Part shown: piece after piece, positions 1,840-21,567 of the stretch
Position numbering within the stretch: the first letter of the stretch is position 1
Layout: every line of letters starts with the position of its first letter
Notes under the pieces: model-generated
Told to the model about the DNA's origin: nothing
The model's database searches: none
The model's input: only the letters and a program-made list of their open reading frames with translations
Translations under genes and position numbers: made by a program
Assembly (NCBI RefSeq): GCF_003018115.1
Contig: NZ_CP027457.1
Strand: one strand, 5' to 3'
DNA from: Escherichia coli
GTDB taxonomy: Bacteria > Pseudomonadota > Gammaproteobacteria > Enterobacterales > Enterobacteriaceae
DNA: 64,000 nt

Positions 1840-2868
1840 TTTCTAATTTTCTCCATCCAAGGTTAGCAAGAGGATTTTTGGTTACAGCATCTTCCAGATG
1901 GTCGGGAGCGAAGTGGGCGTAAATCATTGTCATTTTTATATCGACATGGCCCAGAATATCGCGCAGCACCAGTATGTTTCCGCCATTCATCATAAAGTGA
2001 CTTGCAAATGTATGTCGTAATACGTGTGTGCATTGCCCTTCTGGTAGCTCGATGCCAGCTCGTTTTACCGCACGTTCAAAAGCTTTCCTACAAGGTGTAA
2101 ATAATTTTCCCCTATTCTTAGGCAGTTCTTCATATAAATCCTTTGAAATAGGCACTGTTCGGTTTTTCTTTCCTTTAGTCTTGGTATAAGTGATACGGTA
2201 TTTTGACACCTGATGACTCTGCAGGTTTTCGGCTTCGCTCCAGCGTGCGCCGGTGGCCAAGCATATTTTTGCAATCATCAGCAGACTGGGGCTTTGAGAA
2301 TCAGCACAGGCATCCAGCAGACGTTTAATTTCTTCCGGGGTCAGGAACGCCAATTCACCCTCAGCAATTTTAAATGTTGGCAGCCCAGCAAGCGGGTTGG
2401 GGGCTGCCAGTGGCCCAGCTTTTTCAGTGTACCAAAAACAGATGATAGGTTGCGCTGTTCAAGATTTACCGTGCGGGGCTTAACGGGCGACATAAGCGTG
2501 CCATCTTCATTTCGTACTTCACCTTTTAACCGTGCTTCGCGGTATTTCGTAAACTCACCAGCTGTCAGTTCTGAGGCGATGGGATCGCCTAGACCATTAC
2601 AGATAATTCTAAGTTTCGCCATGAGGCGCTTGGGGTCTGCGAGTGTTTGACCATACAGGGAATACCACAGCTCAATTAATTCTGATAGATGTCGCCGATC
2701 TTCCTTTTCCCCTAGCCATGGTTTTTTGTTCACTTCTTCCATTGTGAAGCTTTCAAACGCAATGGCTTCGCCTTTGGTAGCAAATTGCTTACGCACGCGC
2801 TTACCATTGCGTCCATTGGGATAGCACTCACACAACCATTTTCCGTTCGGCTGTTTTCTGATGGTCAT
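1829..2868 (-). pseudogene. int: P2-family tyrosine integrase, interrupted by an apparent 1-nt frameshift in a G5 run (2399..2403)
   Basis: Two overlapping ORFs (2341..2868 N-terminal part, 1829..2353 catalytic part with ...HVLRHTFASHF...MIYAHF motifs); adding one G/C to the homopolymer gives a continuous ...HWQPPNPLAGLPTFKIAEGELAFLTPEEI... reading. Confidence 0.7.
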
Positions 2869-5219: not shown

Positions 5220-5446
5220 TGGCTGATGCAATGGATCTCGTACAGCAGCGCGTTGAAGAAGAACGCCAGCGCCATATCCGTGCTGCCCGTGCCAGAACGC
5301 CGGGCGTGTCACGCGTGCTTTGCATTGAATGTGAAGCGCCAATTCCGCCAGCAAGACGCCGCGCCATTCCGGGAGTGCAGCTTTGCATTACCTGCCAGGA
5401 AATAGCAGAGCTGAAAGGCAAACATTACAACGGAGGTGCTGTATGA
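5219..5446 (+). CDS. TraR/DksA-family C4 zinc-finger protein
   Basis: CxxC...CxxC pattern (CIECEAPIPPARRRAIPGVQLCITCQ); 75 aa; translationally coupled to neighbours. Confidence 0.7.
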   Translation: MADAMDLVQQRVEEERQRHIRAARARTPGVSRVLCIECEAPIPPARRRAIPGVQLCITCQEIAELKGKHYNGGAV

Positions 5447-6300
5447 GCACCATCCTGAAATGGGCGGGTAATAAAACCGCCGTTATGTCCGAACTGAAAA
5501 AATACCTTCCTGCTGGCCCGCGACTGGTTGAACCTTTCGCGGGTTCCTGTGCAGTGATGATGGAGACGGATTACCCAAGCTATCTGGTAGCGGATATTAA
5601 TCCTGATTTAATCAACCTCTATAAAAAGGTTGCTGCTGATTGTGAGGTGTTTATATCTCGCGCCAGAATTTTGTTTGAGGAAGCAAACAGTGAGCTGGCT
5701 TATTACAACATAAGGCAGGAGTTTAATTACTCAACTGAAATTACTGATTTCATGAAATCGGTATATTTCCTGTATCTCAATCGTCATGGTTACCGTGGGT
5801 TATGTCGCTATAACAAGAGCGGGCATTTCAACATTCCCTACGGTAATTATAAAAAACCGTATTTCCCTGAAAAAGAAATTCGCGCATTTGCAGAGAAAGC
5901 CCAGCGGGCAACGTTTATCTGCGCCAGCTTTGATGAAACGCTGGCGATGTTGAAGGCGGGGGATGTGGTGTATTGCGATCCGCCGTATGACGGTACGTTT
6001 TCCGGCTATCACACTGATGGCTTCACTGAGGATGACCAGTATCACCTGGCATCCGTTCTTGAACATCGATCATCTGAAGGTCATCCGGTCATTGTTTCTA
6101 ACAGTGACACATCCCTGATTCGTTCGCTGTATCGCAATTTCACTCACCACTACATCAAGGCAAAACGCAGCATCGGCGTGTCGGCTGGCGAGAGTAAATC
6201 TGCAACAGAAATCATTGCTGTTTCCGGGGCGCGCTGCTGGGTGGGATTTGATCCTTCGCGTGGCGTGGATAGTTCTGCTGTGTACGAGGTGCGTGTATGA
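5443..6300 (+). CDS. dam: DNA adenine methyltransferase (Dam-like, probable GATC N6-adenine MTase), orphan
   Basis: Motif [10 protein letters not shown] and motif IV DPPY; strong similarity pattern to E. coli Dam ([24 protein letters not shown]); ATG 5443 with GGAGGTG RBS. Confidence 0.85.
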
Positions 6301-8711
6301 GTCATGACGATATGAGCAACTCTAGCGGCTTTAACGAGGCCGCAGCAGCATTTTCATGGAACGGCCCGAAAAAGGCCATTAACCCTTATCTGGACCCGGC
6401 GGAAGTTGCGCCGGAGTCTGCACTTTCAAACATGATCACTCTGTACGCTGCCGATAACGAGCAGGAACAGCTGCGCCGCGATGCACTGAGTGAGCAGGTC
6501 TGGGAGCGTTATTTCTTTAATGAATCCCGTGATCCTGTCCAGCGCGAAATGGAGCAGGATAAGCTCATTAGCCGCGCAAAGCTTGCGCATGAGCAGCAGC
6601 GTTTTAACCCGGACATGGTCATTCTGGCAGATGTCAGCGCCCAGCCTACCCACATCAGCAAGCCGCTGATGCAACGTATCGAATACTTCAGTAGCCTGGG
6701 CAGGCCAAAGGCTTATTCCTGCTATTTGCGTGAGACGATTAAGCCATGTCTGGAGCGACTGGATTGTGTACGCGACAGTCAGCTATCCGCTTCTTTCCGT
6801 TTTATGGCAAGCCATCAAGGGCTTGAGGGCCTGCTGATCCTGCCTGAAATGAGTCAGGATCAGGTAAAACGCCTGTCCACCCTGGTAGCAGCGCATATGA
6901 GCATGTGTCTTGAGGTCGCTTGTGGTGATTTGTATGCCACCGATGACGTTAAGCCAGAAGAAATCCGCAAGGCATGGGAAAAGGTGGCAGCGGAAACCCT
7001 GCGTCTGGATGTTATCCCGCCTGCGTTTGAGAAACTTCGTCGGAAAAGAAACCGCCGCAAACCAGTGCCCTATGAACTCATACCGGGTTCGATGGCACGT
7101 ATGCTTTGCGCCGACTGGTGGTATCGAAAATTGTGGAAGATGCGTTGCGAATGGCGGGAAGAGCAGTTGCGTGCTGTCTGTCTGGTCAGCAAAAAAGCAT
7201 CTCCCTATGTCAGCTATGAAGCAGTGACGCATAAACGTGAGCAGCGCCGCAAGTCGCTGGAGTTTTTCCGTTCTCATGAACTGGTGAACGAAGACGGAGA
7301 CACGCTGGATATGGAAGATGTGGTAAACGCCAGCAGCAGCAACCCGGCACATCGCCGAAATGAGATGATGGCCTGCGTTAAAGGTCTGGAGCTTATCGCG
7401 GAAATGCGTGGTGACTGCGCCGTTTTCTACACTATCACCTGTCCGTCACGTTTCCATTCCACGCTAAATAACGGCAGGCCCAACCCGACCTGGACAAATG
7501 CGACTGTAAGACAAAGCAGTGATTATCTGGTCGGCATGTTTGCTGCATTTCGTAAGGCGATGCACAAAGCCGGGTTGCGTTGGTATGGCGTGCGGGTGGC
7601 TGAGCCGCACCATGACGGTACTGTGCACTGGCATCTTATGTGCTTCATGCGTAAAAAAGACCGCCGCGCCATCACTGCATTACTGCGTAAGTTTGCCATC
7701 CGTGAAGACCGCGAGGAGCTGGGCAATAACACTGGGCCGCGCTTTAAGTCTGAGCTGATTAATCCGCGCAAAGGAACGCCGACAAGCTACATCGCGAAAT
7801 ATATCAGTAAGAACATTGACGGGCGTGGTCTGGCTGGCGAGATCAGCAAGGAAACGGGTAAATCTCTGCGTGATAACGCTGAATACGTGAATGCCTGGGC
7901 GTCTCTGCATCGTGTTCAGCAATTCCGCTTCTTTGGTATTCCGGGGCGTCAGACTTACCGTGAACTGCGATTGCTGGCTGGTCAGGCGGCAAGGCTACAG
8001 GGTGACAAAAAAGCAGGTGCGCCGGTACTGGATAACCCACGTCTTGATGCCATCCTGGCTGCTGCTGATGCTGGCTGTTTTGCGACCTACATCATGAAGC
8101 AGGGCGGCGTGCTGGTTCCCCGCAAATATCACCTTATCAGAACAGCTTATGAAATTAACGAAGAGCCGACCGCCTATGGCGATCACGGTATTCGTATTTA
8201 TGGCATCTGGTCACCCATTGCAGAGGGCAAGATCTGCACTCATGCAGTGAAGTGGAAAATGGTTAGTAAGGCCGTTGACGTTCAGGAGGCGGCAGCCGAC
8301 CAGGGCGCTTGCGCCCCTTGGACTCGTGGCAATAACTGTCCCCTTGCTGAAAATTTGAACCAACAAGGGAAAGACAAATCAGCTGATGGGGACTCCAGAA
8401 CGGATATTACCCGTATGAATGACAAGGAGTTGCACGATTACCTGCACAGTATGAGCAAAAAAGAGCGCCGGGAACTGGCTGCAAGGTTACGCCAGGTGAA
8501 ACCGAAACGGCGTAAAGACTACAAACAGCGAATTACAGACCATCAGCGACAGCAGCTCGTCTATGAACTGAAGTCCAGGGGATTTGATGGCAGCGAGAAA
8601 GAAGTCGATTTGCTCCTTCGCGGCGGCAGTATTCCGTCAGGAGCAGGCCTGCGTATCTTCTATCGGAACCAGCGTCTGAAGGAAGATGATAAGTGGCGGA
8701 ACCTGTATTAA
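6297..8711 (+). CDS. A: replication initiation endonuclease (P2 gpA-like rolling-circle initiator)
   Basis: 804-aa ORF at the end of the early operon; contains the gpA-family AKYISKN region and HWHLMCFM motif. Confidence 0.8.
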
Positions 8712-8805
8712 TTACGCGGGTTAACAATTCGTGCTCTTAATAATACCAGGCATATCAGGCCGATGAACGTAAAAAAACGTTTTACATCAGTAAGATTATT
8801 GTATA

Positions 8806-8821
8806 CTGTAAATATAAACAG
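8806..8821 (+). promoter_or_regulatory. LexA box (SOS operator) CTGTAAATATAAACAG
   Basis: Perfect CTG-N10-CAG with AT-rich centre about 45 bp upstream of the 8864 start; weaker second copy GTGGTTATGTATACAG at 8821..8836. Confidence 0.7.
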
Positions 8822-8863
8822 TGGTTATGTATACAGTATTGTTTTGGTGTCATAGGAGGAAAG

Positions 8864-9052
8864 ATGCAGGACTATTTTTTGGAGTCTTTGAAGCTCCAGC
8901 GCATTGATTTTTTTCTTAAGCTTGTAGCGGCTAGTGAGTGTAGTGATGAAGAGAAGGGGCTGGCTCTGCAGTGGGTTTCTGAATTGACTGATGAACTCAT
9001 GGCAAAAATCAGAAGCCACGAATACAACCGCTCAATGGATGTCATCAGCTGA
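8864..9052 (+). CDS. small SOS-inducible protein, possible Tum-like antirepressor
   Basis: 62-aa ORF with AGGAGG RBS directly downstream of the LexA box; 186-like position after gene A. Confidence 0.45.
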   Translation: MQDYFLESLKLQRIDFFLKLVAASECSDEEKGLALQWVSELTDELMAKIRSHEYNRSMDVIS

Positions 9053-9062
9053 GGTGACTTTT

Positions 9063-9296
9063 ATGCGCATTGAAATAATGATCGATAAAGAGCAGAAGAT
9101 TAGCCAGTCTACCCTGGACGCCCTTGAATCCGAGCTTTACCGCAATCTGCGCCCCCTGTATCCCAAAACGGTAATTCGCATTCGCAAAGGTAGCTCTAAC
9201 GGTGTGGAACTAACCGGACTGCAACTGGATGAAGAAAGAAAACAAGTGATGAAAATTATGCAGAAGGTGTGGGAGGACGACAGCTGGCTGCATTAA
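9063..9296 (+). CDS. DinI-family protein
   Basis: 77 aa from ATG 9063 (RBS GAGGTG); MRIEIMIDKEQ...WEDDSWLH resembles DinI (MRIEVTI...W..ADDW). Confidence 0.7.
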   Translation: MRIEIMIDKEQKISQSTLDALESELYRNLRPLYPKTVIRIRKGSSNGVELTGLQLDEERKQVMKIMQKVWEDDSWLH

Positions 9297-9488
9297 GAAA
9301 TGTTGCCCCCAGGAGGATTCATTCTGATGGGGGCTAGTTTGGGCAATGAGTGAAATAAGGCGTAAGGTGGGCGGTTATTTTGATAAGTGATCGTCCGCTT
9401 TGTGTCAGAAGCAGAAGCGGGAGTGTCTGAGACTCTCTAAAAGTTGATGATTCACTTACAAAACCATTTTCCTGATGGATGCTTACAC

Positions 9489-9824
9489 TTACGAATGATC
9501 ATTCTGTTTAGTCTTCATGAGAAAATCCCGAATCTTTGCCAAGTTTGAATTTTCGGGGATTGAATCCATGTACGGATCACGCTCAAACACTAATTGCTCA
9601 GATTCAACGAAAGCCTGCCACTCTACTGGGTCTAGCTCAAATCCCATTGCTGTCATATCACTTTCATCTTCCCCCTCGATCCAGTGGACTAAATAAAACA
9701 ATTCATCATCAGGAGAATCATCCTCACCATCAACAATATCAACATCGGTTACAGTGATACGTAGGGTGGGATCGATTTTTGAGACATAAATTCCTAACTG
9801 TGGTATAGGGGGAATATTGTTCAT
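9489..9824 (-). CDS. hypothetical highly acidic small protein (about 26 D/E in 111 aa), candidate DNA mimic, anti-restriction or immunity factor
   Basis: Strong RBS AAGGAG 6 nt before ATG (9822-9824); divergent from the DUF262 gene across the cos region; AT-rich. Confidence 0.6.
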   Translation of the reverse strand: MNNIPPIPQLGIYVSKIDPTLRITVTDVDIVDGEDDSPDDELFYLVHWIEGEDESDMTAMGFELDPVEWQAFVESEQLVFERDPYMDSIPENSNLAKIRDFLMKTKQNDHS

Positions 9825-10165
9825 GGAAACTCCTTTTATTGGTGTTTGCTATTTGAATAAAAATACGCCAAACAGAGTGTTAACTGTGAATATGGAAAGA
9901 ATCGTTGTAAGTACCCCACTTAGGTGTCCCATTCTATTTTAGAGGTTCTCGTGCATATGGATTATGTTATCTGAAAGTTAACTTCCGCTTCCCGTTCACA
10001 GCGAACATTCATCTTTGTAAACCCGTATGATCCGTTTTTCAAGTGGCCATTCAGATACGGATTTTCACTTCCTTGACAGTGCATGACTATGCTGCATGAA
10101 ATCGCATGATCGATTGAGGATCGTCTTTGCTCAGATCCGCCAGAACTGGCGGGCTTTTGCTCATG

Positions 10166-10181
10166 TCATGCATGTGCATGA
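10166..10181. repeat. perfect palindrome TCATGCA-TG-TGCATGA beside cos; related GCATGA direct repeats at 10081, 10094, 10104
   Basis: Read directly; candidate terminase or regulator binding site. Confidence 0.4.
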
Positions 10182-10203
10182 AAACCACTGCATAAAGCGG
10201 GCA

Positions 10204-10222
10204 GGCGTGGCGGGGATACGAG
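10204..10222. other. candidate cos cohesive-end site GGCGTGGCGGGGATACGAG
   Basis: First 13 nt match the P2/186 cohesive-end sequence as recalled (GGCG(A/T)GGCGGGGAAAGCA...); lies between the right-end tum region and Q as in P2/186. Confidence 0.4.
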
Positions 10223-10356
10223 CGCGCTCTGATATGAAAATCTGAACAAAAAATTACAAAATGGTATCTTTTTGTTGCTATCATCATTTTTGATGGTAAC
10301 TTAACCTTTTCAGTTTCTATATTATAAAATTCTATCCAGAAGAAGGAATTTGTTTC

Positions 10357-12138
10357 ATGGCTGAACTATTACCGCAAACAACTTCTATACAAACTATTTA
10401 TTCATGGTTTACTGAAGGTAAGATATTTGTTAATAGACGTTATCAACGAAAATTAGTTTGGACTGCAATAGAGAAACAAAAATTAATTGAATCCATTCAA
10501 AAAAAATATCCAATTCCTGCAGTTCTTCTCGCGGAAAGGGAAAATGATCCTGGCACATATGAAATAATTGATGGCCTACAAAGATTACATGCAATAATGT
10601 CTTTCATCGAAACAGGATATGAATCACTTGATGGAAAACGTTTTAATCTGGACGCTTTTCCCACAGCGAAAAATCGAGCGGATGAAGGTAAGTTTGTTGC
10701 AGTGAAAGCTGATAATCTTTTAAGTCAGCGTGAGGTTACTCAGTTATTGGATTATTCTCTTGCAATGTCCATTATGCGTAATGCGACTGAGAACGAAATA
10801 AATGATGTTTTTGATAGAATTAATACATACGGGCATAGACTTAGTGATCAAGAAAGGCGCCAGGCTGGTATACAAAATAAATTTTCAAATATGGTTAGGG
10901 ATATTGCCTGTTCTATCAGGGGGGATGTATCTGACGACATATTGCTTTTAGAGCAAATGCCGTCTATTAGCATTGATTTGCCACTAACTAAACATGGTTA
11001 CCAAATTCAGTCGGAAGAAGTATTTTGGGTAAAACATGGGATCTTACGTTCAACAGACCTTCGTGACAGTATGGATGAGCAATGCATTGCAGATATAGCA
11101 GCTTGTATTGTTGGAGGTAAGTTAATAGATCGTTCCAAAGATGCGCTTGATCAGATTTATAATAATGAAGATGAAGAGTATAGTCGTATTAGCTCTGCTA
11201 TTAATGTTTATGGTGAAGGAAAATTTGCAGAAGAGTTTAAATTCTGCATCCAGGAAATAACAAAAGTATGTAATAGTGACGGTGAAATTAAACTCAGGGA
11301 TTTAATCTTTACTAAACGTACTACAAATGCTTTCCCAGCCATATTTGCTGTGTTATTTATTGCTTTTCATGAATTACTCATTAAAGAAAATAAGAAGATT
11401 AATAATTATAAAGGTGTAAAAGACAATCTTAATAATATAGTCACTCGACTAGATACTAAAAGATCTGCTACTGGTGGGGAAGAGAGAAGAAAGAATATTA
11501 ATTCTATCATAGGCTTGATTAAAGATAACTTTATTGATAGCGCCGATAGCAGTCATATCTATAATTCTCACAATACGGTGGATATTGAGGATATTTTACG
11601 AAGATCTGAAATAGAGCTTGCAAATTATGAACTGAAACAGGGTTTGTTGATGTTAGGCGGAGAGCGAACTATTGATGATGGCATTCATGAGAAAATATTC
11701 TCCACAATTTGTGCTATTGCTAACATCGGTAAAGGTAACAAGAACGGTGTAGTTGGTAAGTTATTGCTTGGTGTAACAGATAAACCAAGTGATACAAGTA
11801 GAGTAAAAGAGCTTGATGATATAGATGCACATGTAGTTGGTGAGAGAAGTGTTGTTGGTGTTAAAAGAGAAGCTATTAAACTCGGCATATCAATGGAAGA
11901 ATATTATAGACGTTTTTGCGATGAGTTGAAAAAATCTGCTTTGAGTGAGCCTCTTAAATCACAAGTGGTGAGTTTGATTGACTATAATGACTTTTATGGT
12001 TATGGAGTTATAGTTATTACAATTCCACTTCTAGCATCTTATTCTAGTTATGATGGGGATATTTATTATCGTGCTGGCGATAATACCGTAAAAGCAACAG
12101 TTATCGAAGCAGCAGATATTGCAACACGTTTTAAATGA
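10357..12138 (+). CDS. DUF262 (ParB/GmrS-like NTPase/nuclease-fold) N-domain fused to Schlafen/AlbA_2-like C-domain; candidate anti-phage defence protein
   Basis: 593 aa; N-terminal RRYQRKLVW and IIDGLQRLHA motifs (DUF262 signature); C-terminal ELANYELKQ...ICAIANIGKGNKNGVVGKLLLGVTD...IYYRAGDNT resembles AlbA_2/Schlafen core; no H-N-H/DUF1524 motif; AT-rich; between cos and portal gene. Confidence 0.7.
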   Translation: MAELLPQTTSIQTIYSWFTEGKIFVNRRYQRKLVWTAIEKQKLIESIQKKYPIPAVLLAERENDPGTYEIIDGLQRLHAIMSFIETGYESLDGKRFNLDAFPTAKNRADEGKFVAVKADNLLSQREVTQLLDYSLAMSIMRNATENEINDVFDRINTYGHRLSDQERRQAGIQNKFSNMVRDIACSIRGDVSDDILLLEQMPSISIDLPLTKHGYQIQSEEVFWVKHGILRSTDLRDSMDEQCIADIAACIVGGKLIDRSKDALDQIYNNEDEEYSRISSAINVYGEGKFAEEFKFCIQEITKVCNSDGEIKLRDLIFTKRTTNAFPAIFAVLFIAFHELLIKENKKINNYKGVKDNLNNIVTRLDTKRSATGGEERRKNINSIIGLIKDNFIDSADSSHIYNSHNTVDIEDILRRSEIELANYELKQGLLMLGGERTIDDGIHEKIFSTICAIANIGKGNKNGVVGKLLLGVTDKPSDTSRVKELDDIDAHVVGERSVVGVKREAIKLGISMEEYYRRFCDELKKSALSEPLKSQVVSLIDYNDFYGYGVIVITIPLLASYSSYDGDIYYRAGDNTVKATVIEAADIATRFK

Positions 12139-12141
12139 AAG

Positions 12142-12163
12142 AACGCCTGCTCAGGCAGGCGTT
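12142..12163. terminator. bidirectional hairpin terminator between DUF262 gene and Q
   Basis: AACGCCTGC-tcag-GCAGGCGTT perfect 9-bp stem. Confidence 0.55.
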
Positions 12164-12178
12164 AATTATAAACAGGAA

Positions 12179-13207
12179 CTACAAAATATATTTATTAAAT
12201 GTAATTATATTTTCATCCAGCCAACAATTAAGCGCTTGCATCAATTTTTGCAAAGGTAAAAGCTCATTCCGCACAAATACCTTACTAGCTTTCTCTACAT
12301 CCCCAAACCCCCCGACATTGCTAGGCATAATCCCCATCATTTGCGGCGGTACGCGGTGCGCCGCCATCATGTCGTCCCGGCTCACGTTCTTGATATTCAG
12401 AAACTCATCCTTCGCCGCGACTTCTGACAGAGGAATGATCTGAAGCCCATCCTTTTTGCCGTTAGGCGAGTACATAAACAGGTTGCGGAAGTTACCCGGT
12501 CCTTTGGCGCTTTTCATTGCGTTGCGGAGGTTGTTCACATCCTCCTGGTTTTGCGCGGCATCGGTCATGTACATGATGAAGCCTGCATGACTGCCGTTAA
12601 TGTAATACTTCCGGCGGAACAGCGTGGCGGACTCGTTGAGCAGGGCTGACGGAATGGCAGAAAGATAACCGGGCAGGCCGTAGATCTCCTGGTTGATATC
12701 CGGTTCCATCAGGTGAAAAATGCTGCCTTTCGTGAACTGATACGGTTGCGTTGTCATGCCGTATTGCACAAACCAGTAGGTATCCAGGTCTAATCCACGT
12801 CGGGTGTATTTTGCCAGGGCAGGCTCAAGGGCGATAACTTCACCGAATCGGTTCGTGCGTTTCTCCAGGTAGGCGTTACCAAATACCAGATAGTCCTGCA
12901 CAAAACGCGAAAAAGCCTGCTGGCTGAGCAGCGGATGAGGGATATAGGTACTGGTCAGAATGTTGCACTTTACTGCAATCGGGGAACTGTGATGCACGGC
13001 GGCGCGGAAGGTGCGCGCCAGTCCGTCAAAGCTGACGGGCGGCTCATACCAGCGGTCCATCTGTACGCATTCCACATAGTCCAGCAGTTCACGGCGGTCC
13101 AGAACAGGAACGGGATCGCCGAAGCTGAATGCTTCGGCTGTAGTTTGACTTTTAAGCTGGATCTGTTTCGTCGCCGCAGCTCGGTTCTTCTTACTCTTTC
13201 CCATCAA
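12179..13207 (-). CDS. Q: portal protein (P2 gpQ-like)
   Basis: 342 aa, P2 Q size and position, translationally coupled to P. Confidence 0.85.
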   Translation of the reverse strand: MMGKSKKNRAAATKQIQLKSQTTAEAFSFGDPVPVLDRRELLDYVECVQMDRWYEPPVSFDGLARTFRAAVHHSSPIAVKCNILTSTYIPHPLLSQQAFSRFVQDYLVFGNAYLEKRTNRFGEVIALEPALAKYTRRGLDLDTYWFVQYGMTTQPYQFTKGSIFHLMEPDINQEIYGLPGYLSAIPSALLNESATLFRRKYYINGSHAGFIMYMTDAAQNQEDVNNLRNAMKSAKGPGNFRNLFMYSPNGKKDGLQIIPLSEVAAKDEFLNIKNVSRDDMMAAHRVPPQMMGIMPSNVGGFGDVEKASKVFVRNELLPLQKLMQALNCWLDENIITFNKYIL

Positions 13208-14970
13208 AAAATCTCCACAATATTGCTGGTATTGGCGGATTCGCCCTGCAGCGGTTCGTTAAACAGTGCGTGCATCGTTGCCCATGCCAGATCGGCGTGG
13301 CTGGCTTCTTCGCTGCGGCTGGCTTCATAGGTCGGGCGGTTGCCACTGGCTGTGGTGGCGCGACGGATTGCCATAAATGACTGCGCAATGTCGGTATGTC
13401 CGGCGTCAAACTCCAGACGGCGGTGGCTGATAATGTCGTAGGCCTTGAGTACCAGGGCGTTTTTAACGTTGGGGTTGTAGACAAACTCCCGGACGGCAGG
13501 AAAGAACGCTTTCACGTTCTCGTAAACCCCGTGACCAACGCCGGTTGAGTCGATGCCGATGTAGGTCACGTTGTACTGCTCGGTCAGTTTTTTGATTGCG
13601 TCAGCCTGGGCGCGGAAGTCCATCCCGCGCCACTGGTGACGCTCAAGAATGCGAAACTTGCCGCCCGGCACGGTTGGCGGTGCCACCACCACGCACCCGG
13701 CGCTGTCACCGTTCTGCGTGCCTTTCGCCGGGTCGTATCCGATCCAGACTTCGCGCCAGCCAAACGGGCGCAGGGCCAGTGCATGAAAGTCGGTCCAGAC
13801 TTCCCAACTGTCCACCATGCACGCCTGCAGCTCGCTGAGCGGAAACACGGACGCGAGATCGTCCACAAACTCGCACATCAGTAGGTTCTGGTATTCGTCC
13901 GGGCTGTACTCCATGCGCAACTGATCGAGGTCGAACAGGTTACAGCCGCCGCGCACCGCATCTTCCACAGTGACTATCTGGCGGTACTGTCCGTCAGGGC
14001 AGAGCAGGCCGCGCGCAAGATTGCTGTGGGTCAGGTCAATATCCACCTTGTCCGCTTTGGCGCGGCCCCGGTTAAACAGCGCACCGGACCAGAACGGATA
14101 GGCACTGTGGGTCAGGCTGGACGGCGTGGAAAAGTAGGTTTGTCGCCATTTCTTGTGAATGGCCATCCCGGAGGCAACTTTGCGCAGTTCCTGGAATTTC
14201 GGTATCCAGAAATATTCATCAAGGTACAGGTTGCCGTGGTAGCTCTGCGCCGTACGGGCGTTGGTGCCGAGAAAGTACAATGCTGCGCCATTAGGTAGCA
14301 CCATAGGATCGCCTTTCAGCTCCACCTCAACTTCTTTGGCAAAGTCGATGATGTACTGCTTAAAGACGTGCGCCTGTGCCTTACTGGCAGAAAGGAAAAT
14401 CTGGTTACGTCCGGTAAGCAGGGCGTCAATCAGGGCTTCACGGGCAAAGTAAAAGGTCGCGCCGATCTGGCGTGACTTCAGCAGGTTGCGGATGCGGTTG
14501 GTTTTTCCTGCTTCCCACCAGTGGCGCTGGTAGTTGAACATGGAGGAATAAAAGATTTCTTCCAGCTTCTCAATCTGTTCATCGGTGAAAACGTTCTTTT
14601 CCGGCTGACGGCGCGGGCCTTTGTTGCGGTTGGCGACGTTAGGGTTTAAGTCGGCTTCGTTGCCGCCATTGTTAAACTTGCCGATCCGCGCATGGCGCTC
14701 CGACTGGCGCGCCAGCAGGTCAATCTCTTTGAAATCTTTCCCTTCTTTGTGCTCCTTCATAATGAGCTGGCAGTAGCGTGCGGCGGTGGTGAGCTGCATC
14801 TGATCCAGCGGCCCATAGTCACCCCACTTGTCGCGTTTTTTCCAGCTGTGAACGGTTGCAACTTTCTCGCCCAGCATTTCAGCAATGCGGGCTACGCGGT
14901 ATCCCTGAAAGTACAGCAGCATGGCCTGCCGACGGGGATCGAGATCTGCGGGTGTCAGTGTGGTGTTCAT
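13204..14970 (-). CDS. P: terminase large (ATPase) subunit (P2 gpP-like)
   Basis: 588 aa; size and synteny with P2 gpP. Confidence 0.85.
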   Translation of the reverse strand: MNTTLTPADLDPRRQAMLLYFQGYRVARIAEMLGEKVATVHSWKKRDKWGDYGPLDQMQLTTAARYCQLIMKEHKEGKDFKEIDLLARQSERHARIGKFNNGGNEADLNPNVANRNKGPRRQPEKNVFTDEQIEKLEEIFYSSMFNYQRHWWEAGKTNRIRNLLKSRQIGATFYFAREALIDALLTGRNQIFLSASKAQAHVFKQYIIDFAKEVEVELKGDPMVLPNGAALYFLGTNARTAQSYHGNLYLDEYFWIPKFQELRKVASGMAIHKKWRQTYFSTPSSLTHSAYPFWSGALFNRGRAKADKVDIDLTHSNLARGLLCPDGQYRQIVTVEDAVRGGCNLFDLDQLRMEYSPDEYQNLLMCEFVDDLASVFPLSELQACMVDSWEVWTDFHALALRPFGWREVWIGYDPAKGTQNGDSAGCVVVAPPTVPGGKFRILERHQWRGMDFRAQADAIKKLTEQYNVTYIGIDSTGVGHGVYENVKAFFPAVREFVYNPNVKNALVLKAYDIISHRRLEFDAGHTDIAQSFMAIRRATTASGNRPTYEASRSEEASHADLAWATMHALFNEPLQGESANTSNIVEIF

Positions 14971-15016
14971 GGCACAAACCTACAGCCTTGAATGAAGGCT
15001 TTCCCCGCCTGCGGTT

Positions 15017-15034
15017 TGTGTGGTTGTCGGTACA
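15017..15034 (+). promoter_or_regulatory. Ogr-dependent late promoter dyad TGT-N12-ACA (pO-like)
   Basis: TGTGTGGTTGTCGGTACA centred about 85 bp upstream of O start. Confidence 0.6.
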
Positions 15035-15112
15035 AATACCGCGCATTGTTTCACTGCCCCCATCACCGCAACCATAAGGCTCCAGTAAGTTTTTTCTAAC
15101 GGAGCACGGCTC

Positions 15113-15946
15113 ATGACAGTGAAAGCAAAGCGTTTTCGCATCGGGGTGGAAGGTGCCACTACCGACGGACGCGAAATCCAGCGTGAATGGCTGGAACAGA
15201 TGGCAGCCAGCTACAACCCGGCGGTGTATACCGCGCTGATTAACCTTGAGCATATCAAGTCTTATCTGCCGGACAGCACCTTTAACCGCTACGGCAAGGT
15301 GACGGCGCTGTTTGCTGAAGAAATCACGGAAGGTCCGCTGGCTGGCAAGATGGCGCTGTATGCCGACGTTGAGCCAACGGAATCCCTGGTGGAACTGGTG
15401 AAAAAAGGCCAGAAATTATTCACCTCTATGGAAGTCAGCCCGAAGTTCGCTGATACGGGCAAAGCCTACCTGGTTGGCCTGGCTGCCACTGATGATCCCG
15501 CCAGTCTGGGTACGGAAATGCTGACATTCAGCGCCAGTGCAGCCCATAACCCGCTGGCAAACCGCAAGCAGAATCCCGCCAATCTCTTTACCGCTGCAGA
15601 GGAAACGGTGATCGAACTGGAAGAAATCCAGGATGACAAACCGTCCCTGTTTGCCCGCGTCACGGCGCTGTTCACCAAAAAAGAGCAGTCAGACGATGCC
15701 CGGTTCTCTGATGTGCATAAAGCCGTGGAGCTGGTCGCCACTGAGCAGCAGAACCTGAGCGCACGCACCGAAAAATCCCTGTCTGAGCAGGAAGAACGCC
15801 TGTCTGAGCTGGAGACTGCTCTGCAGGAGCAGCAAACCGCCTTTAACGAACTGGTGAATAAGCTGAGCCATGAAGACAGCCGCCAGGACTACCGCAAGCG
15901 TGCAACAGGCGGTAACGCCCCCGCTGACACTCTGACCAATTGCTGA
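15113..15946 (+). CDS. O: capsid scaffolding protein (P2 gpO-like)
   Basis: 277 aa, coiled-coil rich C-terminus, precedes major capsid gene. Confidence 0.8.
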   Translation: MTVKAKRFRIGVEGATTDGREIQREWLEQMAASYNPAVYTALINLEHIKSYLPDSTFNRYGKVTALFAEEITEGPLAGKMALYADVEPTESLVELVKKGQKLFTSMEVSPKFADTGKAYLVGLAATDDPASLGTEMLTFSASAAHNPLANRKQNPANLFTAAEETVIELEEIQDDKPSLFARVTALFTKKEQSDDARFSDVHKAVELVATEQQNLSARTEKSLSEQEERLSELETALQEQQTAFNELVNKLSHEDSRQDYRKRATGGNAPADTLTNC

Positions 15947-15962
15947 TGGAGCACAAAACCTG

Positions 15963-17021
15963 ATGAAGAAGAATACCCGCTTTGCTTTTAACGCTTACCT
16001 GCAGCAGCTGGCGCGTCTGAACGGTGTGGCAGTTGAAGAACTGTCCAGCCAGTTCACCGTGGAGCCGTCTGTACAGCAGACGCTGGAAGACCAGATCCAG
16101 CAGTCCGCCGCTTTCCTGACGCTGATTAACGTCACGCCAGTGACTGAGCAGTCTGGTCAGTTGCTGGGTCTGGGTGTTGGCAGCACCATTGCCGGAACCA
16201 CTGACACCACCGCGAAAGAGCGTGAGCCTGTCGATCCGACGCTGATGGTTGATGTGGAATATAAATGCGAGCAGACCAACTTTGACACGGTGCTGACCTA
16301 CGCGAAGCTGGACCTGTGGGCGAAGTTTCAGGATTTCCAGGTGCGCATCCGTGACGCCATCGTGAAACGTCAGGCACTGGACCGCATCATGATCGGCTTT
16401 AACGGCGTGAAGCGTGCGAAAACCTCCAACCGTAGTGAAAACCCGCTGCTGCAGGATGTAAACAAAGGCTGGCTGCAGAAAATCCGTGAGGATGCACCGG
16501 ATCACGTCATGGGCAGCACCACCACGGGCGGTGAAACCACTCCGGGCGTGGTGAAAGTCGGGAAAGGTGGCGAATATGCCAACCTGGACGCCGTAGTGAT
16601 GGATGCCGTCAATGAGCTTATCGATGTGGTCTACCAGGACGATGACGATCTGGTGGTGATTTGCGGTCGTGAACTGCTGTCTGACAAGTATTTCCCGCTG
16701 GTCAACAAAGAGCAGGAAAACAGTGAAAAACTGGCTGCCGATATGATCATCAGTCAGAAACGCATGGGTGGCCTGCAGGCCGTGCGTGCGCCGTTCTTCC
16801 CGCCGAATGCGCTGCTGATCACCCGTCTGGATAACCTGTCCATCTACTGGCAGGAAGACACCCGCCGCCGTTCAGTTATCGACAACCCGAAACGTGACCG
16901 GATTGAAAATTTTGAATCCGTTAACGAAGCCTATGTGGTTGAGGACTACCGCTGCGCCGCACTGGTGGAAAACATCCAGATTGGCGATTTCAGCGCCGCT
17001 GCAGCAGAAGCCGGAGCGTAA
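15963..17021 (+). CDS. N: major capsid protein (P2 gpN-like)
   Basis: 352 aa, synteny O-N-M. Confidence 0.85.
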   Translation: MKKNTRFAFNAYLQQLARLNGVAVEELSSQFTVEPSVQQTLEDQIQQSAAFLTLINVTPVTEQSGQLLGLGVGSTIAGTTDTTAKEREPVDPTLMVDVEYKCEQTNFDTVLTYAKLDLWAKFQDFQVRIRDAIVKRQALDRIMIGFNGVKRAKTSNRSENPLLQDVNKGWLQKIREDAPDHVMGSTTTGGETTPGVVKVGKGGEYANLDAVVMDAVNELIDVVYQDDDDLVVICGRELLSDKYFPLVNKEQENSEKLAADMIISQKRMGGLQAVRAPFFPPNALLITRLDNLSIYWQEDTRRRSVIDNPKRDRIENFESVNEAYVVEDYRCAALVENIQIGDFSAAAAEAGA

Positions 17022-17024
17022 CCC

Positions 17025-17675
17025 ATGAGCCTGAGTCCCGCACGGCAGCATCGCCTGCGCGTTCAGGCTGAACAGGCCGCCCGCGAGGGCGGCAGCGTTC
17101 GCCACGCGTCGGGCTATGACCTGATGCTGCTGCAACTGGCGGAAGACCGCCGCCGTCTCAAGGGCGTTCAGTCCACGGTGAAAAAAGCGGAAATCAAGGT
17201 GGAGCTGCTGCCGAAATATGCCGCCTGGGCGGAGGGCGTCCTGGCTGCCGGAGGCGCTCAACAGGATGACGTGCTGATGTACGTGATGCTGTGGCGCATT
17301 GATGCCGGAGATTATGCCGGGGCGCTGGAGATCGGGCGTCATGCCCTGCGTCATGGCTGGGTGATGCCGCTGGGTAACCGCAACGTGCAGACCGTGCTGG
17401 CAGAGGAAATGGCAGACGCGGCGCAGAGCGCAATGCTTGCCGCCACCGGCTTTGATGCCGATCTGTTGCTGCAGACGCTGGAGCTGACAGACGGTCTGGA
17501 TATGCCGGACCAGTCACGGGCGCGTCTGCATAAAGCGATTGGCGCTGTCCTGAGTGAAAGCAACCCGGCTTCCGCCCTTAATCATCTCAACCATGCGTTA
17601 CAGCTCGATCCCCGCTGTGGCGTGAAAAAAGACAAACAGCAGCTGGAGCGCAGACTGCGCAATGACAGCCGCTGA
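17025..17675 (+). CDS. M: terminase endonuclease (small) subunit (P2 gpM-like)
   Basis: 216 aa, synteny. Confidence 0.8.
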   Translation: MSLSPARQHRLRVQAEQAAREGGSVRHASGYDLMLLQLAEDRRRLKGVQSTVKKAEIKVELLPKYAAWAEGVLAAGGAQQDDVLMYVMLWRIDAGDYAGALEIGRHALRHGWVMPLGNRNVQTVLAEEMADAAQSAMLAATGFDADLLLQTLELTDGLDMPDQSRARLHKAIGAVLSESNPASALNHLNHALQLDPRCGVKKDKQQLERRLRNDSR

Positions 17676-17770
17676 CAGAACGTGCCCCCGCGCACGGGCG
17701 GCACGGGGTGGCGAAAGGCACTGCCACATCAAAACCCCGTCCACCGCCCTCTATTTCAGGAGAAAGCAGC

Positions 17771-18235
17771 ATGAAGTTTGTTGCGCTAGAACAGGCACCG
17801 GAACAGGCGGAAATCATCAGGAATACGCCGTTCTGGCCTGATGTGGACCTGTCGGAGTTTCGCAGCGTGATGCGCACTGACGGCACGGTGACGCAGCCGC
17901 GTTTAAAGCAGGTTGCGCTGTCGGCAATTTCGGAGGTCAACGCAGAGCTGTATGAGTTTCGCAGACGCCAGCAGATGCTGGGGTATGCCTCGCTGGCAGA
18001 GGTTCCGGCGGAACAGCTGGACGGCAAAAGTGAGCGCATTCAGCACTATTTCAACGCGGTTTACTGCTGGGCACGCGCCATGCTCAACGAACGTTACCAG
18101 GACTATGACGCCACGGCGTCCGGTGTGAAGCGGGGCGAGGAACTGGCGGAAGCAAGCGGTGATTTGTGGCGTGACGCCCGCTGGGCCATCAGCCGGGTGC
18201 AGGATGCGCCGCACTGCACAGTGGAGCTTATCTGA
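17771..18235 (+). CDS. L: head completion/stabilisation protein (P2 gpL-like)
   Basis: ATG 17771 with AGGAG RBS; synteny. Confidence 0.75.
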   Translation: MKFVALEQAPEQAEIIRNTPFWPDVDLSEFRSVMRTDGTVTQPRLKQVALSAISEVNAELYEFRRRQQMLGYASLAEVPAEQLDGKSERIQHYFNAVYCWARAMLNERYQDYDATASGVKRGEELAEASGDLWRDARWAISRVQDAPHCTVELI

Positions 18236-18438
18236 TGAAAGTGCGTGCGCATCAGTATGACACGGTGGACGCGCTTTGCTGGCGTCATTACGGGCGCACG
18301 CAGGGTGTCACGGAGCAGGTACTGAAGGCAAATCCGGGGCTTGCCGAATACGGCCCCTTTTTACCTCACGGGCTGCAGGTGGAGCTGCCGGACATTCCGA
18401 CCACCACCACCGTGCAGACCGTCCAGCTATGGGACTGA
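18235..18438 (+). CDS. X: tail protein X (P2 gpX-like)
   Basis: 67 aa, exact P2 gpX size and position. Confidence 0.8.
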   Translation: MKVRAHQYDTVDALCWRHYGRTQGVTEQVLKANPGLAEYGPFLPHGLQVELPDIPTTTTVQTVQLWD

Positions 18439-18441
18439 ATT

Positions 18442-18657
18442 ATGACGCTTGAGCGAATCAGCGCCTTTATCACGTATTGCATCGCCGTCGTGCTGGCCTG
18501 GCTGGGCGATTTGTCCATCAAGGATGCCTCAACGCTGGGCGGCCTGATGATTGGTGTGCTGATGCTGGCTATCAACTGGTACTACAAACACAAAGCCTAC
18601 CAGCTTCTGCGCGACGGGCAGATCTCGCGGGAGGATTATGAATCCATCAATCGTTAA
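18442..18657 (+). CDS. holin
   Basis: 71 aa with two hydrophobic helices and charged C-terminus, immediately upstream of endolysin. Confidence 0.7.
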   Translation: MTLERISAFITYCIAVVLAWLGDLSIKDASTLGGLMIGVLMLAINWYYKHKAYQLLRDGQISREDYESINR

Positions 18658-19150
18658 ACGCTGCCTTGTCGGGGCCGTGCTGGCTATTGCTGCCACGCTG
18701 CCGGGTTTTCAGCAGCTTCACACCTCCGTGGAGGGGCTGAAACTGATTGCCGATTACGAAGGCTGTCGTCTGCAGCCGTATCAGTGCAGCGCGGGTGTCT
18801 GGACAGACGGCATTGGTAATACATCTGGCGTCATTCCGGGCAAAACCATTACGGAACGACAGGCAGCGGAAGGGCTGATCTCCAACGTGCTACGTGTGGA
18901 GCGGGCACTGGAAAAGTGTGTGAAGCAACAGCCGCCGCAGAAGGTGTATGACGCGGCGGTGTCGTTTGCCTTCAACGTGGGAACGGGCAATGCCTGCAGT
19001 TCCACGCTGGTGAAATTGCTCAACCAGCGGCGCTGGGCGGATGCGTGCCGACAGTTGCCGCGCTGGGTTTATGTAAAAGGTGTGTTTAATCAGGGGCTGG
19101 ATAACCGCCGAGCGCGGGAGATGGCCTGGTGTTTACAGGGAGCAAACTGA
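18638..19150 (+). CDS. K: endolysin (phage lysozyme, GH24-like)
   Basis: EGLKLIADYEGCRLQPYQCSAGVWTDGIGNT catalytic E-D-T region. Confidence 0.85.
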   Translation: MNPSIVKRCLVGAVLAIAATLPGFQQLHTSVEGLKLIADYEGCRLQPYQCSAGVWTDGIGNTSGVIPGKTITERQAAEGLISNVLRVERALEKCVKQQPPQKVYDAAVSFAFNVGTGNACSSTLVKLLNQRRWADACRQLPRWVYVKGVFNQGLDNRRAREMAWCLQGAN

Positions 19151-19151
19151 A

Positions 19152-19529
19152 ATGAAAAAGAAAGTAATTAGCGGGCTGTTTCTGATGTTATGGATGGCGC
19201 TGTTAATCGCAGCAATGGCGTATCCGCAGGGGATTTTTCCGGTACTGGCAGCGTCCGGCGTTTGGGTAGCCTGTTTGCTGACATGGGCGGTAATTCCGGT
19301 AGCACTGGCTGCGTTAATTCAGAATGGCCCGCTCTGGCAGGAGTTAAGGGCATCTTTGCTGAAGACAATTACCCGAAAAGAAAACGTATTTATCAGTTGG
19401 GTGATGCGATTGCTGATTGTTGTAAGTCTCGCATGGACGGGGTGGGCTATTACCCTGGTCTTTTATCTACTGACCGTTATTGCCTTCTGGATCACCCGTA
19501 ATCAGATGGCGCAACAGGTAGCCGCATGA
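19152..19529 (+). CDS. lysA: LysA-like membrane protein (lysis timing)
   Basis: ATG 19152; multiple TM helices; position after endolysin. Confidence 0.65.
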   Translation: MKKKVISGLFLMLWMALLIAAMAYPQGIFPVLAASGVWVACLLTWAVIPVALAALIQNGPLWQELRASLLKTITRKENVFISWVMRLLIVVSLAWTGWAITLVFYLLTVIAFWITRNQMAQQVAA

Positions 19530-19954
19530 ACCGGTTGCTGCTGGTTGTGCTGGCGTTATTACTGGCGGCGCTGGGCTGGCAGACGTGGCGGCTGGCTGAT
19601 GCCAGCCAGACCATCAGCACGCAGGCAAACGAGCTGCAGAGCAAAAGCCAGGCACTGGCAAAGAGCAACAGCCAGCTTATCAGCCTGTCCATTCTGACTG
19701 AAACCAATAACCGGGAGCAGGCGCGGCTCTATGCCGAAGCAGAACAGACCAGCGCACAGCTGAGACAACGACAACGCCGGATCGAGGAACTGAAACGTGA
19801 GAACGAGGATTTACGCCACTGGGCTGATACTCCTTTGCCTGCTGACATTATCCGGCTGCGGGAACGTCCGGCACTCACCGGAGGTGCAGCTTACCGTCAG
19901 TGGTTGTCCGCGAGTGACGCCGTGTCGGCTGGAGCAGGCAGCACCGCGCACTAA
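19526..19954 (+). CDS. lysB: inner-membrane spanin (LysB/Rz-like)
   Basis: N-terminal TM anchor and coiled-coil periplasmic domain. Confidence 0.75.
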   Translation: MNRLLLVVLALLLAALGWQTWRLADASQTISTQANELQSKSQALAKSNSQLISLSILTETNNREQARLYAEAEQTSAQLRQRQRRIEELKRENEDLRHWADTPLPADIIRLRERPALTGGAAYRQWLSASDAVSAGAGSTAH

Positions 19955-20087
19955 CGGTGATCTGAATGCGTTGCTGGATGAAACGGAGGCCGCCTGGGCG
20001 GTCTGTGCAGACAAAGTGGACATGATTATTGCGTGTCAGGAGCGAAACAGTGAACAAACCACAATCCCTGCGCCACGCCCTCAATAA
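19797..20087 (+). CDS. lysC: outer-membrane lipoprotein spanin (LysC/Rz1-like), overlapping lysB in another frame
   Basis: GTG start; lipobox LTLSGC; overlaps 3' end of lysB and 5' end of R. Confidence 0.7.
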   Translation: MRTRIYATGLILLCLLTLSGCGNVRHSPEVQLTVSGCPRVTPCRLEQAAPRTNGDLNALLDETEAAWAVCADKVDMIIACQERNSEQTTIPAPRPQ

Positions 20088-20481
20088 AGCGGTGCCTTAT
20101 GTCCGCAATAACCCGGACAAACTGCATCTGTTTGTGGATAACGGTTCGCTGGTTGCCACGGGGGCCAGCTCCATGTCGTGGGAGTACCGTTACACACTGA
20201 ACGCGGTGATTGAGGATTTCAGCGGCGACCAGAATCTGCTGATGGCCCCGGTTTTGCTGTGGCTGAGGGATAACCAGCCCGATGCCATCAATAACCCGGC
20301 GTTACGGGAAAAGCTATTCACCTTTGAGGTGGATATTCTGCGCAACGATGTCTGTGATATCAGCCTGAACCTGCAACTGACGGAACGTGTGCTGGTCAGC
20401 ACTGACGGCAGTGTGTCGAGCGTTGAAGCTATAGCGGAACCTGATGCACCTGAAGAAATGTGGACGGTGAAACGTGGCTGA
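20050..20481 (+). CDS. R: tail completion protein (P2 gpR-like)
   Basis: GTG 20050 with AGGAG RBS; synteny. Confidence 0.75.
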   Translation: MNKPQSLRHALNKAVPYVRNNPDKLHLFVDNGSLVATGASSMSWEYRYTLNAVIEDFSGDQNLLMAPVLLWLRDNQPDAINNPALREKLFTFEVDILRNDVCDISLNLQLTERVLVSTDGSVSSVEAIAEPDAPEEMWTVKRG

Positions 20482-20920
20482 ACTGCAGAAGGTGGACGAC
20501 TGGCTGAGTGCCTTGCTGGCGAATCTGGAACCAGCCTCGAGAAGCCGCATGATGCGCCAGCTGGCGCAGGAACTTCGCCGGACACAGCAGCAGAATATCA
20601 GGATGCAGCGCAACCCTGACGGCAGCGGCTATGAACCGCGACGGGTAACAGCACGCAGTAAAAAAGGCCGTATCAAACGTCAGATGTTTGCAAAGCTGCG
20701 CACCACAAAATACCTGAAAACTGCCGCCAGCACCGACTCTGCCAGCGTGCAGTTTGAAGGCAAGGTGCAGCGCATTGCCCGCGTTCACCATTACGGCCTG
20801 CGAGATCGCGTCAGTCGTAAGGGACCGGAGGTGCGTTACGCAGAGCGTCGCCTTCTGGGTGTAAATGATGATGTTGAGGCAATGACCCGCGACATGATTC
20901 TGCAATGGCTGGCGGGGTGA
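20474..20920 (+). CDS. S: tail completion protein (P2 gpS-like)
   Basis: 148 aa; synteny. Confidence 0.75.
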   Translation: MAELQKVDDWLSALLANLEPASRSRMMRQLAQELRRTQQQNIRMQRNPDGSGYEPRRVTARSKKGRIKRQMFAKLRTTKYLKTAASTDSASVQFEGKVQRIARVHHYGLRDRVSRKGPEVRYAERRLLGVNDDVEAMTRDMILQWLAG

Positions 20921-20924
20921 TCTT

Positions 20925-20942
20925 TGTATCAGCACTGATACA
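20925..20942 (+). promoter_or_regulatory. Ogr-dependent late promoter dyad TGT-N12-ACA (pV-like)
   Basis: TGTATCAGCACTGATACA (also a palindrome) about 55 bp upstream of V. Confidence 0.6.
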
Positions 20943-20988
20943 AGTTGCAGCACTGCCGCCTTTCTTCCCCTGATGGCAACCTTTCCCT

Positions 20989-21567
20989 ATGAACGCACAA
21001 TTAACCGAAATCATGCGCCTTATCACCAACCTGATCCGCACAGGGGTAGTCATCGAAGTGGACAGGGAAAACTGGCTTTGCCGGGTGAAAACGGGCGACC
21101 TTGAAACCAACTGGATTAACTGGCTGACGCTGCGCGCGGGTAATGCCCGGACATGGTGGCGACCATCGGAAGGTGAGCAGGTGGTGCTACTGAGTCTGGG
21201 CGGCAATCTGGAAACAGCCTTTGCGCTGCCCGCCATCTATTCGAATCAGTTCGCGCCACCGTCGACGTCGGCAGACGCCTGCGTGACAGAACATCCTGAC
21301 GGTGGCTGGTTTGAATACGAACCTGCCACCGGGCGTTGGTATGTAAGGGGCATCAAATCAATGGTCATTGAGGCCGCTGACAACATCACCATGAAAACCA
21401 GTGAGTTTGTACTGGAGGCTGACCACACGCGCATTAACAGCGAAGTGGTGATCAATGGTGGCGTTACCCAGGGCGGCGGAGTGATGAGTTCTAACGGGAT
21501 TGTGGTTGATGCACATCAGCATACTGGCGTCCTGAAAGGCGGCGACACAACCGGAGGCCCGGTATGA
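20989..21567 (+). CDS. V: baseplate spike/assembly protein (P2 gpV-like)
   Basis: 192 aa; synteny V-W-J-I. Confidence 0.8.
   Translation: MNAQLTEIMRLITNLIRTGVVIEVDRENWLCRVKTGDLETNWINWLTLRAGNARTWWRPSEGEQVVLLSLGGNLETAFALPAIYSNQFAPPSTSADACVTEHPDGGWFEYEPATGRWYVRGIKSMVIEAADNITMKTSEFVLEADHTRINSEVVINGGVTQGGGVMSSNGIVVDAHQHTGVLKGGDTTGGPV

Follow-up and report, generated by a model that had tools for sequence, protein, structure and literature searches.

Small, very acidic proteins encoded by mobile elements include Ocr (T7 gp0.3) and ArdA, of which Ocr is a helical dimer and ArdA has a fold of its own. CarS1, an antirepressor of Myxococcus xanthus, is an operator-DNA mimic of SH3 topology with a pI of 4.1 and a flexible β2–β3 loop, and CarS sequesters the basic DNA-recognition helix of a repressor (PMC2926617). 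In P2-like phages, the interval between gpA and gpQ is a published cos-proximal hotspot, which holds tin and old in P2 (PMC9122126). Here, we describe a strongly acidic protein encoded in this interval in a 64,000-nucleotide stretch of Escherichia coli DNA, the whole of which is referred to as the window. Like Ocr and ArdA, this protein is small, very acidic, and encoded by a mobile element. With 111 aa, a pI of 4.05, and 23% Asp+Glu, it falls within the size, pI (~3.8–5.5), and composition of the DNA-mimic class, and the same was found for all 26 family members examined.

The gene occupies positions 9489–9824 of the minus strand (stop codon included), where the ORF list and the translation give 111 codons plus a stop. 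The product contains 15 Asp and 11 Glu compared with 4 Lys and 3 Arg, together with 2 His, and its net charge is approximately −19. The acidic residues are concentrated in the runs DGEDDSPDDE (residues 32–41) and EGEDESD (residues 50–56). It was the most acidic of the window's non-overlapping ORFs of 70 aa or more (77 in all), with a charge per residue of −0.171 compared with −0.093 for the runner-up. A Shine–Dalgarno sequence, AAGGAG, was read from the sequence at 9830–9835 (minus strand), 5 nt ahead of the ATG, and AAGGA(G/A) is kept at this place in the stand-alone alleles, which also have ~165 nt 5′ of the ATG in common. The preliminary description of a strongly acidic 111-aa ORF with an AAGGAG ribosome-binding site was therefore confirmed, with 26 Asp/Glu against 7 Lys/Arg and the runs as described. 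The G+C content of the ORF is 40%, compared with 51% for the window and 51–54% for the flanking core genes, and the ORF lies within a low-GC stretch at ~8700–12200. RefSeq lists the protein as WP_001059831, a “DUF8087 domain-containing protein.”

The surroundings of the gene were also scanned for signals. A promoter scan of the minus strand upstream of the gene returned no convincing sigma-70-like site, and an Rfam search of 8600–10500 gave no match. The sole find of the repeat scan was a GC-rich hairpin at 9305–9334 (inverted repeat I5, GCCCCCAGGAGGAT/ATTCTGATGGGGGC), which separates the acidic gene from a convergent DinI-like gene. This hairpin may be a shared transcription stop for the two genes; the terminator scan did not call it. 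No hydrophobic segment was found in the protein, which rules out a secreted or membrane protein, and a nucleic-acid-binding protein is ruled out by the net charge of −19.

A family search showed that the protein is a full-length member of phrog_17127 (E 2e-70, residues 1–111 of 111). In precomputed annotation, PF26332 (DUF8087) is carried by homologues of 50–98% identity, namely a 98%-identical cluster representative and 60 others. DUF8087/phrog_17127 is thus an already catalogued family that carries no assigned function, and membership says nothing about mechanism. No functional match was obtained for the protein and 26 family members in a copy of Pfam-A without the PF26332 model, the NCBIfam and PADLOC searches of the protein were negative, and no paper on DUF8087, PF26332, phrog_17127, or the WP accessions was found in the searched literature. 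The family is small: clustering of 5.8 billion proteins at 90% identity leaves it with ~80 clusters, and at 50% identity it has 26 representatives. Its close members come from Enterobacterales only. Its members are 70–124 aa long and always stand-alone, never fused to another domain. Conservation is centered on a core of residues 8–82, in which P8, G11, Y13, and W69 are invariant and S15, V25, V28, L45, V46, D56, and E63 are nearly so, and the C-terminal helix is confined to the close subfamily.

The acidity is a property of the whole family. All 26 members examined had a pI of 4.05–4.45, with a median net charge of −14.5 and conserved acidic columns, and comparison of the window allele with three further stand-alone alleles gave dN/dS ratios of 0.10–0.22. 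Together, the acidity of every member and these substitution ratios indicate that the ORF is a real gene under purifying selection and that its acidity is itself selected. DUF8087 is present in ~4% of complete E. coli genomes, including those of BL21, B, W, and the pathogen E2348/69, and stand-alone copies were found in 213 of 5,426 E. coli genomes. A tblastn search with the protein and one distant relative found no match in 50,697 phage records, so the gene is known only from prophages and islands. In the plasmid collection, a single match was obtained (NZ_CP019246.1, 3908–4240, 99% identity), on a 45-kb non-mobilisable “plasmid” that could be either a phage-plasmid of the P2 type or a prophage contig assigned wrongly.

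To characterize the fold, a model was built with AlphaFold2 on a broad alignment (pLDDT 82, pTM 0.69); an earlier model from a closer alignment gave the same topology. Strands were predicted at residues 11–15, 22–31, 43–50, 61–64, and 78–82, with a helix at 66–76, a short helix at 84–87, and a further helix at 94–108. The prediction corresponds to a small SH3/Tudor-like β-barrel with a flexible poly-Asp/Glu loop and a C-terminal helix. The poly-Asp/Glu run at 32–41 forms the β2–β3 loop, is modeled with low confidence (pLDDT ~59), varies in length among relatives, and is deleted in three of them (P0074, P0078, and P0081). A second conserved acidic set, D56, E63, D65, and E68, is placed on well-predicted elements. 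As modeled, the fold class is that of a protein-binding module, with the charge excluding nucleic-acid binding.

Searches with the sequence and the model gave no relative of known function. Phmmer and family-HMM searches of PDB sequences returned chance matches only (E ~0.3–0.7), Foldseek against AFDB50 returned the protein's own family and unnamed small proteins only, and Foldseek against BFVD returned nothing at E ≤0.001. No homology to Ocr or to ArdA/ArdB/KlcA was found by sequence or structure search, and the predicted β-barrel differs from the folds of both Ocr and ArdA. These searches and the predicted fold place the protein outside Ocr, ArdA, and any solved mimic or anti-CRISPR family. 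Other small SH3/Tudor-like barrels, such as DUF1653 3be3, FeoA, CarD/CdnL, and the RNAP-interacting domains of UvrD/PcrA, resembled the model with low scores and 3–13% identity; none is as acidic as DUF8087 or has a known role as a phage accessory protein. CarS is similar in overall character: both proteins are small, monomer-sized, and acidic (pI 4.1 and 4.05) and, if the model is right, share a five-stranded SH3-like barrel with a flexible β2–β3 loop. The comparison did not, however, establish homology to CarS.

We then considered the genomic setting. The window contains a P2/186-like prophage, of which E. coli W and several other strains carry near-identical copies. Its local gene order begins with Dam methylase, the replication endonuclease gpA (6297–8711), a 62-aa ORF (8864–9052), and the DinI-like (Tum-like) gene (9063–9296), toward which the acidic gene is convergent. 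The 593-aa DUF262/GmrSD gene (10357–12138, plus strand) lies across cos from the acidic gene and is followed by the portal gene Q and the terminase gene P; its best PADLOC matches were NsnA (8e-31) and PD-T4-2_A. The acidic and DUF262 genes were said in the preliminary description to diverge across about 530 bp, which agrees with the measured gap of 532 bp. A perfect LexA-box consensus, CTGTAAATATAAACAG, is located at 8806–8821, ~45 nt before the 62-aa ORF and the DinI-like gene; the consensus has 2 matches in 64 kb, compared with 0.74 expected by chance. By analogy with phage 186, this arrangement suggests that the two genes form a Tum-like antirepressor operon inducible by the SOS response.

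Within 9830–10330, only the block at 10078–10240 is conserved among 83 P2-like phage records from five genera. It contains the core GGCGTGGCGGGG at 10204–10215, which resembles the 186/P2 cohesive end. In 22 DUF8087-bearing prophages, homology breaks just at cos, ~400 nt upstream of the acidic ATG. The conserved block, the resemblance of its core, and the homology break place cos between the acidic gene and the DUF262 gene, and they bear out the earlier claim that the acidic gene is located at the extreme right end of the phage genome. In packaged DNA, accordingly, the two genes lie at opposite extremes, the acidic gene at the right, ~380 bp from the end, and the DUF262 gene at the left, and they are neighbors only in the circular or integrated form. 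Since prophage identity ends within ~20 nt of the cos core and varied cargo lies beyond, the published gpA–gpQ hotspot is in effect a pair of slots that assort independently, with cos between them.

The slot occupied by the acidic gene, right of gene A and left of cos, is that of tin and old in P2, and low GC is common to both. In P2, tin and old are oriented leftward, and their products are larger than the DUF8087 protein. They have no sequence relationship to DUF8087, and Old is a nuclease, whereas DUF8087 has no enzymatic domain. A role of the gene in packaging or at cos was ruled out, given that it is absent from most P2-like phages and has an int-proximal origin (see below).

Several other features of the prophage were recorded. 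The P2-type integrase (1859–2868, minus strand) matches in two different reading frames, with residues 1–161 at 2868–2368 and residues 143–331 at 2425–1859, corresponding to ORFs at 2341–2868 and 1829–2353; this split looks like a frameshift, which may prevent excision of the prophage. A GGAAGC hexamer repeat located between the acidic gene and cos, at ~9983–9995, is present in ~2 copies in the window and in 5–6 copies in a related locus (L049, ~5820–5850), forming a variable microsatellite in the upstream region. A 66-aa ORF at 10087–10287 (minus strand) runs across the cos core and is almost certainly not a gene. Feature coordinates of the window and E. coli W match exactly over ~5400–21000. 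The layout differs left of ~5400, where E. coli W has a KAP-family P-loop NTPase between cI and int (L060, 917–2368), which constitutes another cargo slot, and E. coli W has an IS3 in its tail-fibre region, indicating that these prophages are mosaic.

The position near cos bears on one of the two specific roles proposed earlier, namely an Ocr/ArdA-like protector of incoming DNA. Under this proposal, entry of the right DNA end would lead at once to expression of the protein, which would inhibit type I restriction, BREX, or another defence that binds DNA. In its favor, the right cohesive end is ~380 bp from the gene and its upstream region, the size, pI of 4.05, and 23% Asp+Glu are within the known range of DNA mimics (PMC2926617), and anti-RM or anti-CRISPR genes have been reported in a few P2-like prophages (bioRxiv 10.64898/2026.02.27.708500). 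However, DUF8087 differs from Ocr and ArdA in not being an early or leading-region gene and in having its acidic run in a disordered, variable loop. The lack of any sequence or fold kinship in the searches, the absence of that loop from some relatives, and the usual home of the gene in a lysogeny operon (see below) speak against the proposal, and we consider an anti-restriction mimic of this kind unlikely.

The other role proposed earlier was that of an immunity partner; as such, or as an antitoxin, the protein would counteract the DUF262/GmrSD nuclease encoded next to it. The divergent arrangement of the two genes in the window favors it, as does a distant relative located directly upstream of another type IV enzyme, SRA-HNH (L024/L025). 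To examine this relationship, 26 P2-like loci from IMG/VR carrying the acidic gene at 96–100% identity were compared. The 593-aa GmrSD gene was present in only two of them, and the other 24 carried different cargo. In the 22 loci that combine the commonest, almost always 100%-identical allele with non-GmrSD cargo, homology stops past the cos core, and ~18 different cargo patterns, told apart by ORF size, extend from there up to the portal gene. The identical acidic protein is found beside a PIN-domain gene (L002), beside retron Ec86/St85 in BL21 (L012), and beside a DprA/ShosA-like gene in E2348/69 (L013). Conversely, the identical GmrSD protein, WP_000818977, occurs in L020 without DUF8087, where the left-hand slot is taken up by a DUF6694 lipoprotein gene and a 99-aa ORF. 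Among 1,322 E. coli genomes with partial matches to the 3.6-kb region, only 11 have the two genes combined as in the window. These patterns show that the acidic gene and the GmrSD gene assort independently of each other; neither an obligate immunity role nor an obligate antitoxin role is compatible with this. With cos as the homology breakpoint between the genes, ~18 alternative cargos, and GmrSD without its supposed partner, the immunity proposal is refuted as it was stated, and any such role is scarcely credible. Enrichment beside type IV restriction enzymes was likewise rejected, with only 2 of 26 loci carrying GmrSD and one additional SRA-HNH context.

Outside the cos slot, DUF8087 genes were found mainly near integrases. 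In P2-like prophages of other Enterobacterales (L056–L058, L019, and L003), the order is HTH repressor, Flk_N-like gene, DUF8087, and P2-type integrase, all co-oriented, and the DUF8087 stop codon overlaps the start of int; identity to the window protein is 54–70% in L056–L058 and 42–49% in L019 and L003. In L017/L018, the order is C-type repressor, int, and DUF8087, with an 8-nt overlap, and in L024/L025, it is P4-type int, DUF8087, SRA-HNH nuclease, AlpA-like gene, and GPA-type replicase. The latter small integrative element has a complete Hachiman system (HamB, HamA) next door (L024, 1–8733, and L025) and looks like a satellite-like carrier of defence genes. Further copies are located at prophage edges beside pgsA/uvrC. 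In ~80 E. coli genomes, a 90%-identical allele is carried by an integrase-bearing island adjoining ychF (L015, strain 1428), which also holds a PDC-S06 ATPase, a 1,589-aa TmtA/MkoA-like helicase, RadC, DUF2787, and IS elements and is probably a defence island.

Traces of the integrase-proximal arrangement are retained in the window. A remnant of a P2-type integrase gene, derived from its 5′ end and reading MIIRKCKHPSGKWFCK followed by a stop, was identified at 9455–9502 (minus strand), overlapping the DUF8087 stop codon. Over ~50 nt, it aligns at the DNA level with the int starts of L049, L057, L058, and L014, which are intact or longer, and tblastn and frame translation agree on the assignment. 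L049–L051 (97% identical) still encode 71 aa of the integrase N-terminus, in an overlap with the stop codon of DUF8087, and the ychF-island copy keeps ~50 nt of this int start, as the window does. On the other side of the gene, a possible vestige of an Flk_N-like transmembrane tail, ending in LSGVLTTILSIFTVNTLFGVFLFK and a stop, occupies 9849–9938 (minus strand) and ends just before the ribosome-binding site. Its similarity to the Flk_N-like tails of L058, L019, and L057 is weak (scores 31–32), and L049 and L014 preserve its reading frame. The integrase stub and, with less force, the possible Flk_N-like stub indicate that the window gene is a cassette moved from a repressor–integrase operon into the tin/old slot.

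The Flk_N-like protein (phrog_5825, ~210 aa, for example L058 5350–5979), encoded between the repressor and DUF8087, has a single C-terminal transmembrane helix, indicating that it is tail-anchored, and is a candidate prophage exclusion protein. Its gene was found in one sequenced phage record only, and there in pieces. The acidic protein could accordingly be one half of a two-gene exclusion module similar to RexA/RexB, with the window copy orphaned from its tail-anchored partner. The Flk_N-like gene is immediately upstream of DUF8087 in five loci (L003, L019, L056, L057, and L058), and the possible transmembrane-tail stub upstream of the window gene would fit such a history. However, the similarity of that stub is low (score ~31), L017/L018, L024/L025, L021, and L004 have no Flk_N-like gene, and the common stand-alone copies counted above are maintained by purifying selection without the partner, and a partnership of this type seems unlikely.

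The same contexts raise the possibility of a lysogeny factor linked to the integrase. Acting as a CarS-like acidic decoy, it would tie up a basic regulator of the winged-helix or MerR type, such as an Apl, Cox, or AlpA excisionase/lytic repressor or a repressor, belonging to its own element or to a rival, and thereby bias the lysogeny switch or the direction of recombination. Most independent contexts adjoin int or keep an int stub, two different integrase families are involved, DUF8087 is co-oriented with a repressor in five contexts, and DUF8087 elements carry small regulators of the MerR/HTH_17 type. CarS offers a precedent as an acidic protein of SH3 topology that sequesters a MerR-type recognition helix (PMC2926617). 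Even so, we regard this role as very unlikely. A more specific version, in which DUF8087 would be a new SH3-fold decoy family co-expressed with the repressor and integrase and sequestering an Apl, Cox, or AlpA-type regulator of its own element or of a rival, is also a long shot. As an anti-excisionase or antirepressor of this kind, the protein would lock in lysogeny or sabotage competitors, and the copy found at cos in E. coli would be a transplant that acts in trans.

Our favored, though tentative, reading is that the protein is a stand-alone acidic decoy, expressed in the lysogen and active in phage–host or phage–phage conflict. The low G+C content of the gene, its replacement by other genes in L020, its position in a P2 hotspot slot, and its occurrence in the non-phage ychF island are the features expected of a self-contained accessory gene (“moron”) of P2/186-like prophages, which the acidic gene would represent. 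As an independent unit, it is shared among lysogeny operons, the cos slot, and defence-rich islands. It would have reached the cos slot from an operon of repressor, tail-anchored protein, DUF8087, and integrase, carrying stubs of its neighbors. In a P2 lysogen, C and int are transcribed from Pc, and the prophage also expresses tin and old. The positions of DUF8087 in the lysogeny operon and in the tin/old slot thus point to expression from the prophage rather than from an early lytic operon, and the product would be a cytoplasmic acidic protein made in the lysogen. The lack of a catalytic motif, the predicted binding-module fold, and the charge make one-to-one binding to a basic surface the most plausible mode of action; the protein would act alone, binding a positively charged, nucleic-acid-binding surface of a target protein as an electrostatic decoy or inhibitor. 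The remaining probability falls to some other function or to a decaying gene. Of the preliminary description, the general picture of a small acidic inhibitor-like protein in the cos-proximal hotspot holds, with acidity conserved across the family, but neither of its specific proposals was borne out.

In kind, DUF8087 belongs with the small acidic accessory or inhibitor-type proteins of mobile elements, and nothing unprecedented in mechanism was shown. What is new here is the rejection of the DUF262-partner idea, the failure of Ocr/ArdA membership, the assignment, by prediction, of an SH3-like fold, the recognition of cos as a sharp boundary of two slots, and the origin of the gene in a repressor–integrase operon. 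The sharp recombination boundary at cos and the movement of a gene from an operon into the cos slot affect how “systems” in the hotspot are delimited, since genes on opposite sides of cos should not be presumed to cooperate. Annotation tools see almost no counter-defence genes in the P2-like hotspot (bioRxiv 10.64898/2026.02.27.708500). Should the protein prove to act as an inhibitory decoy, the few known acidic mimic proteins would gain a new fold family, and the best-studied P2-like defence hotspot would have a candidate anti-defence or exclusion factor.
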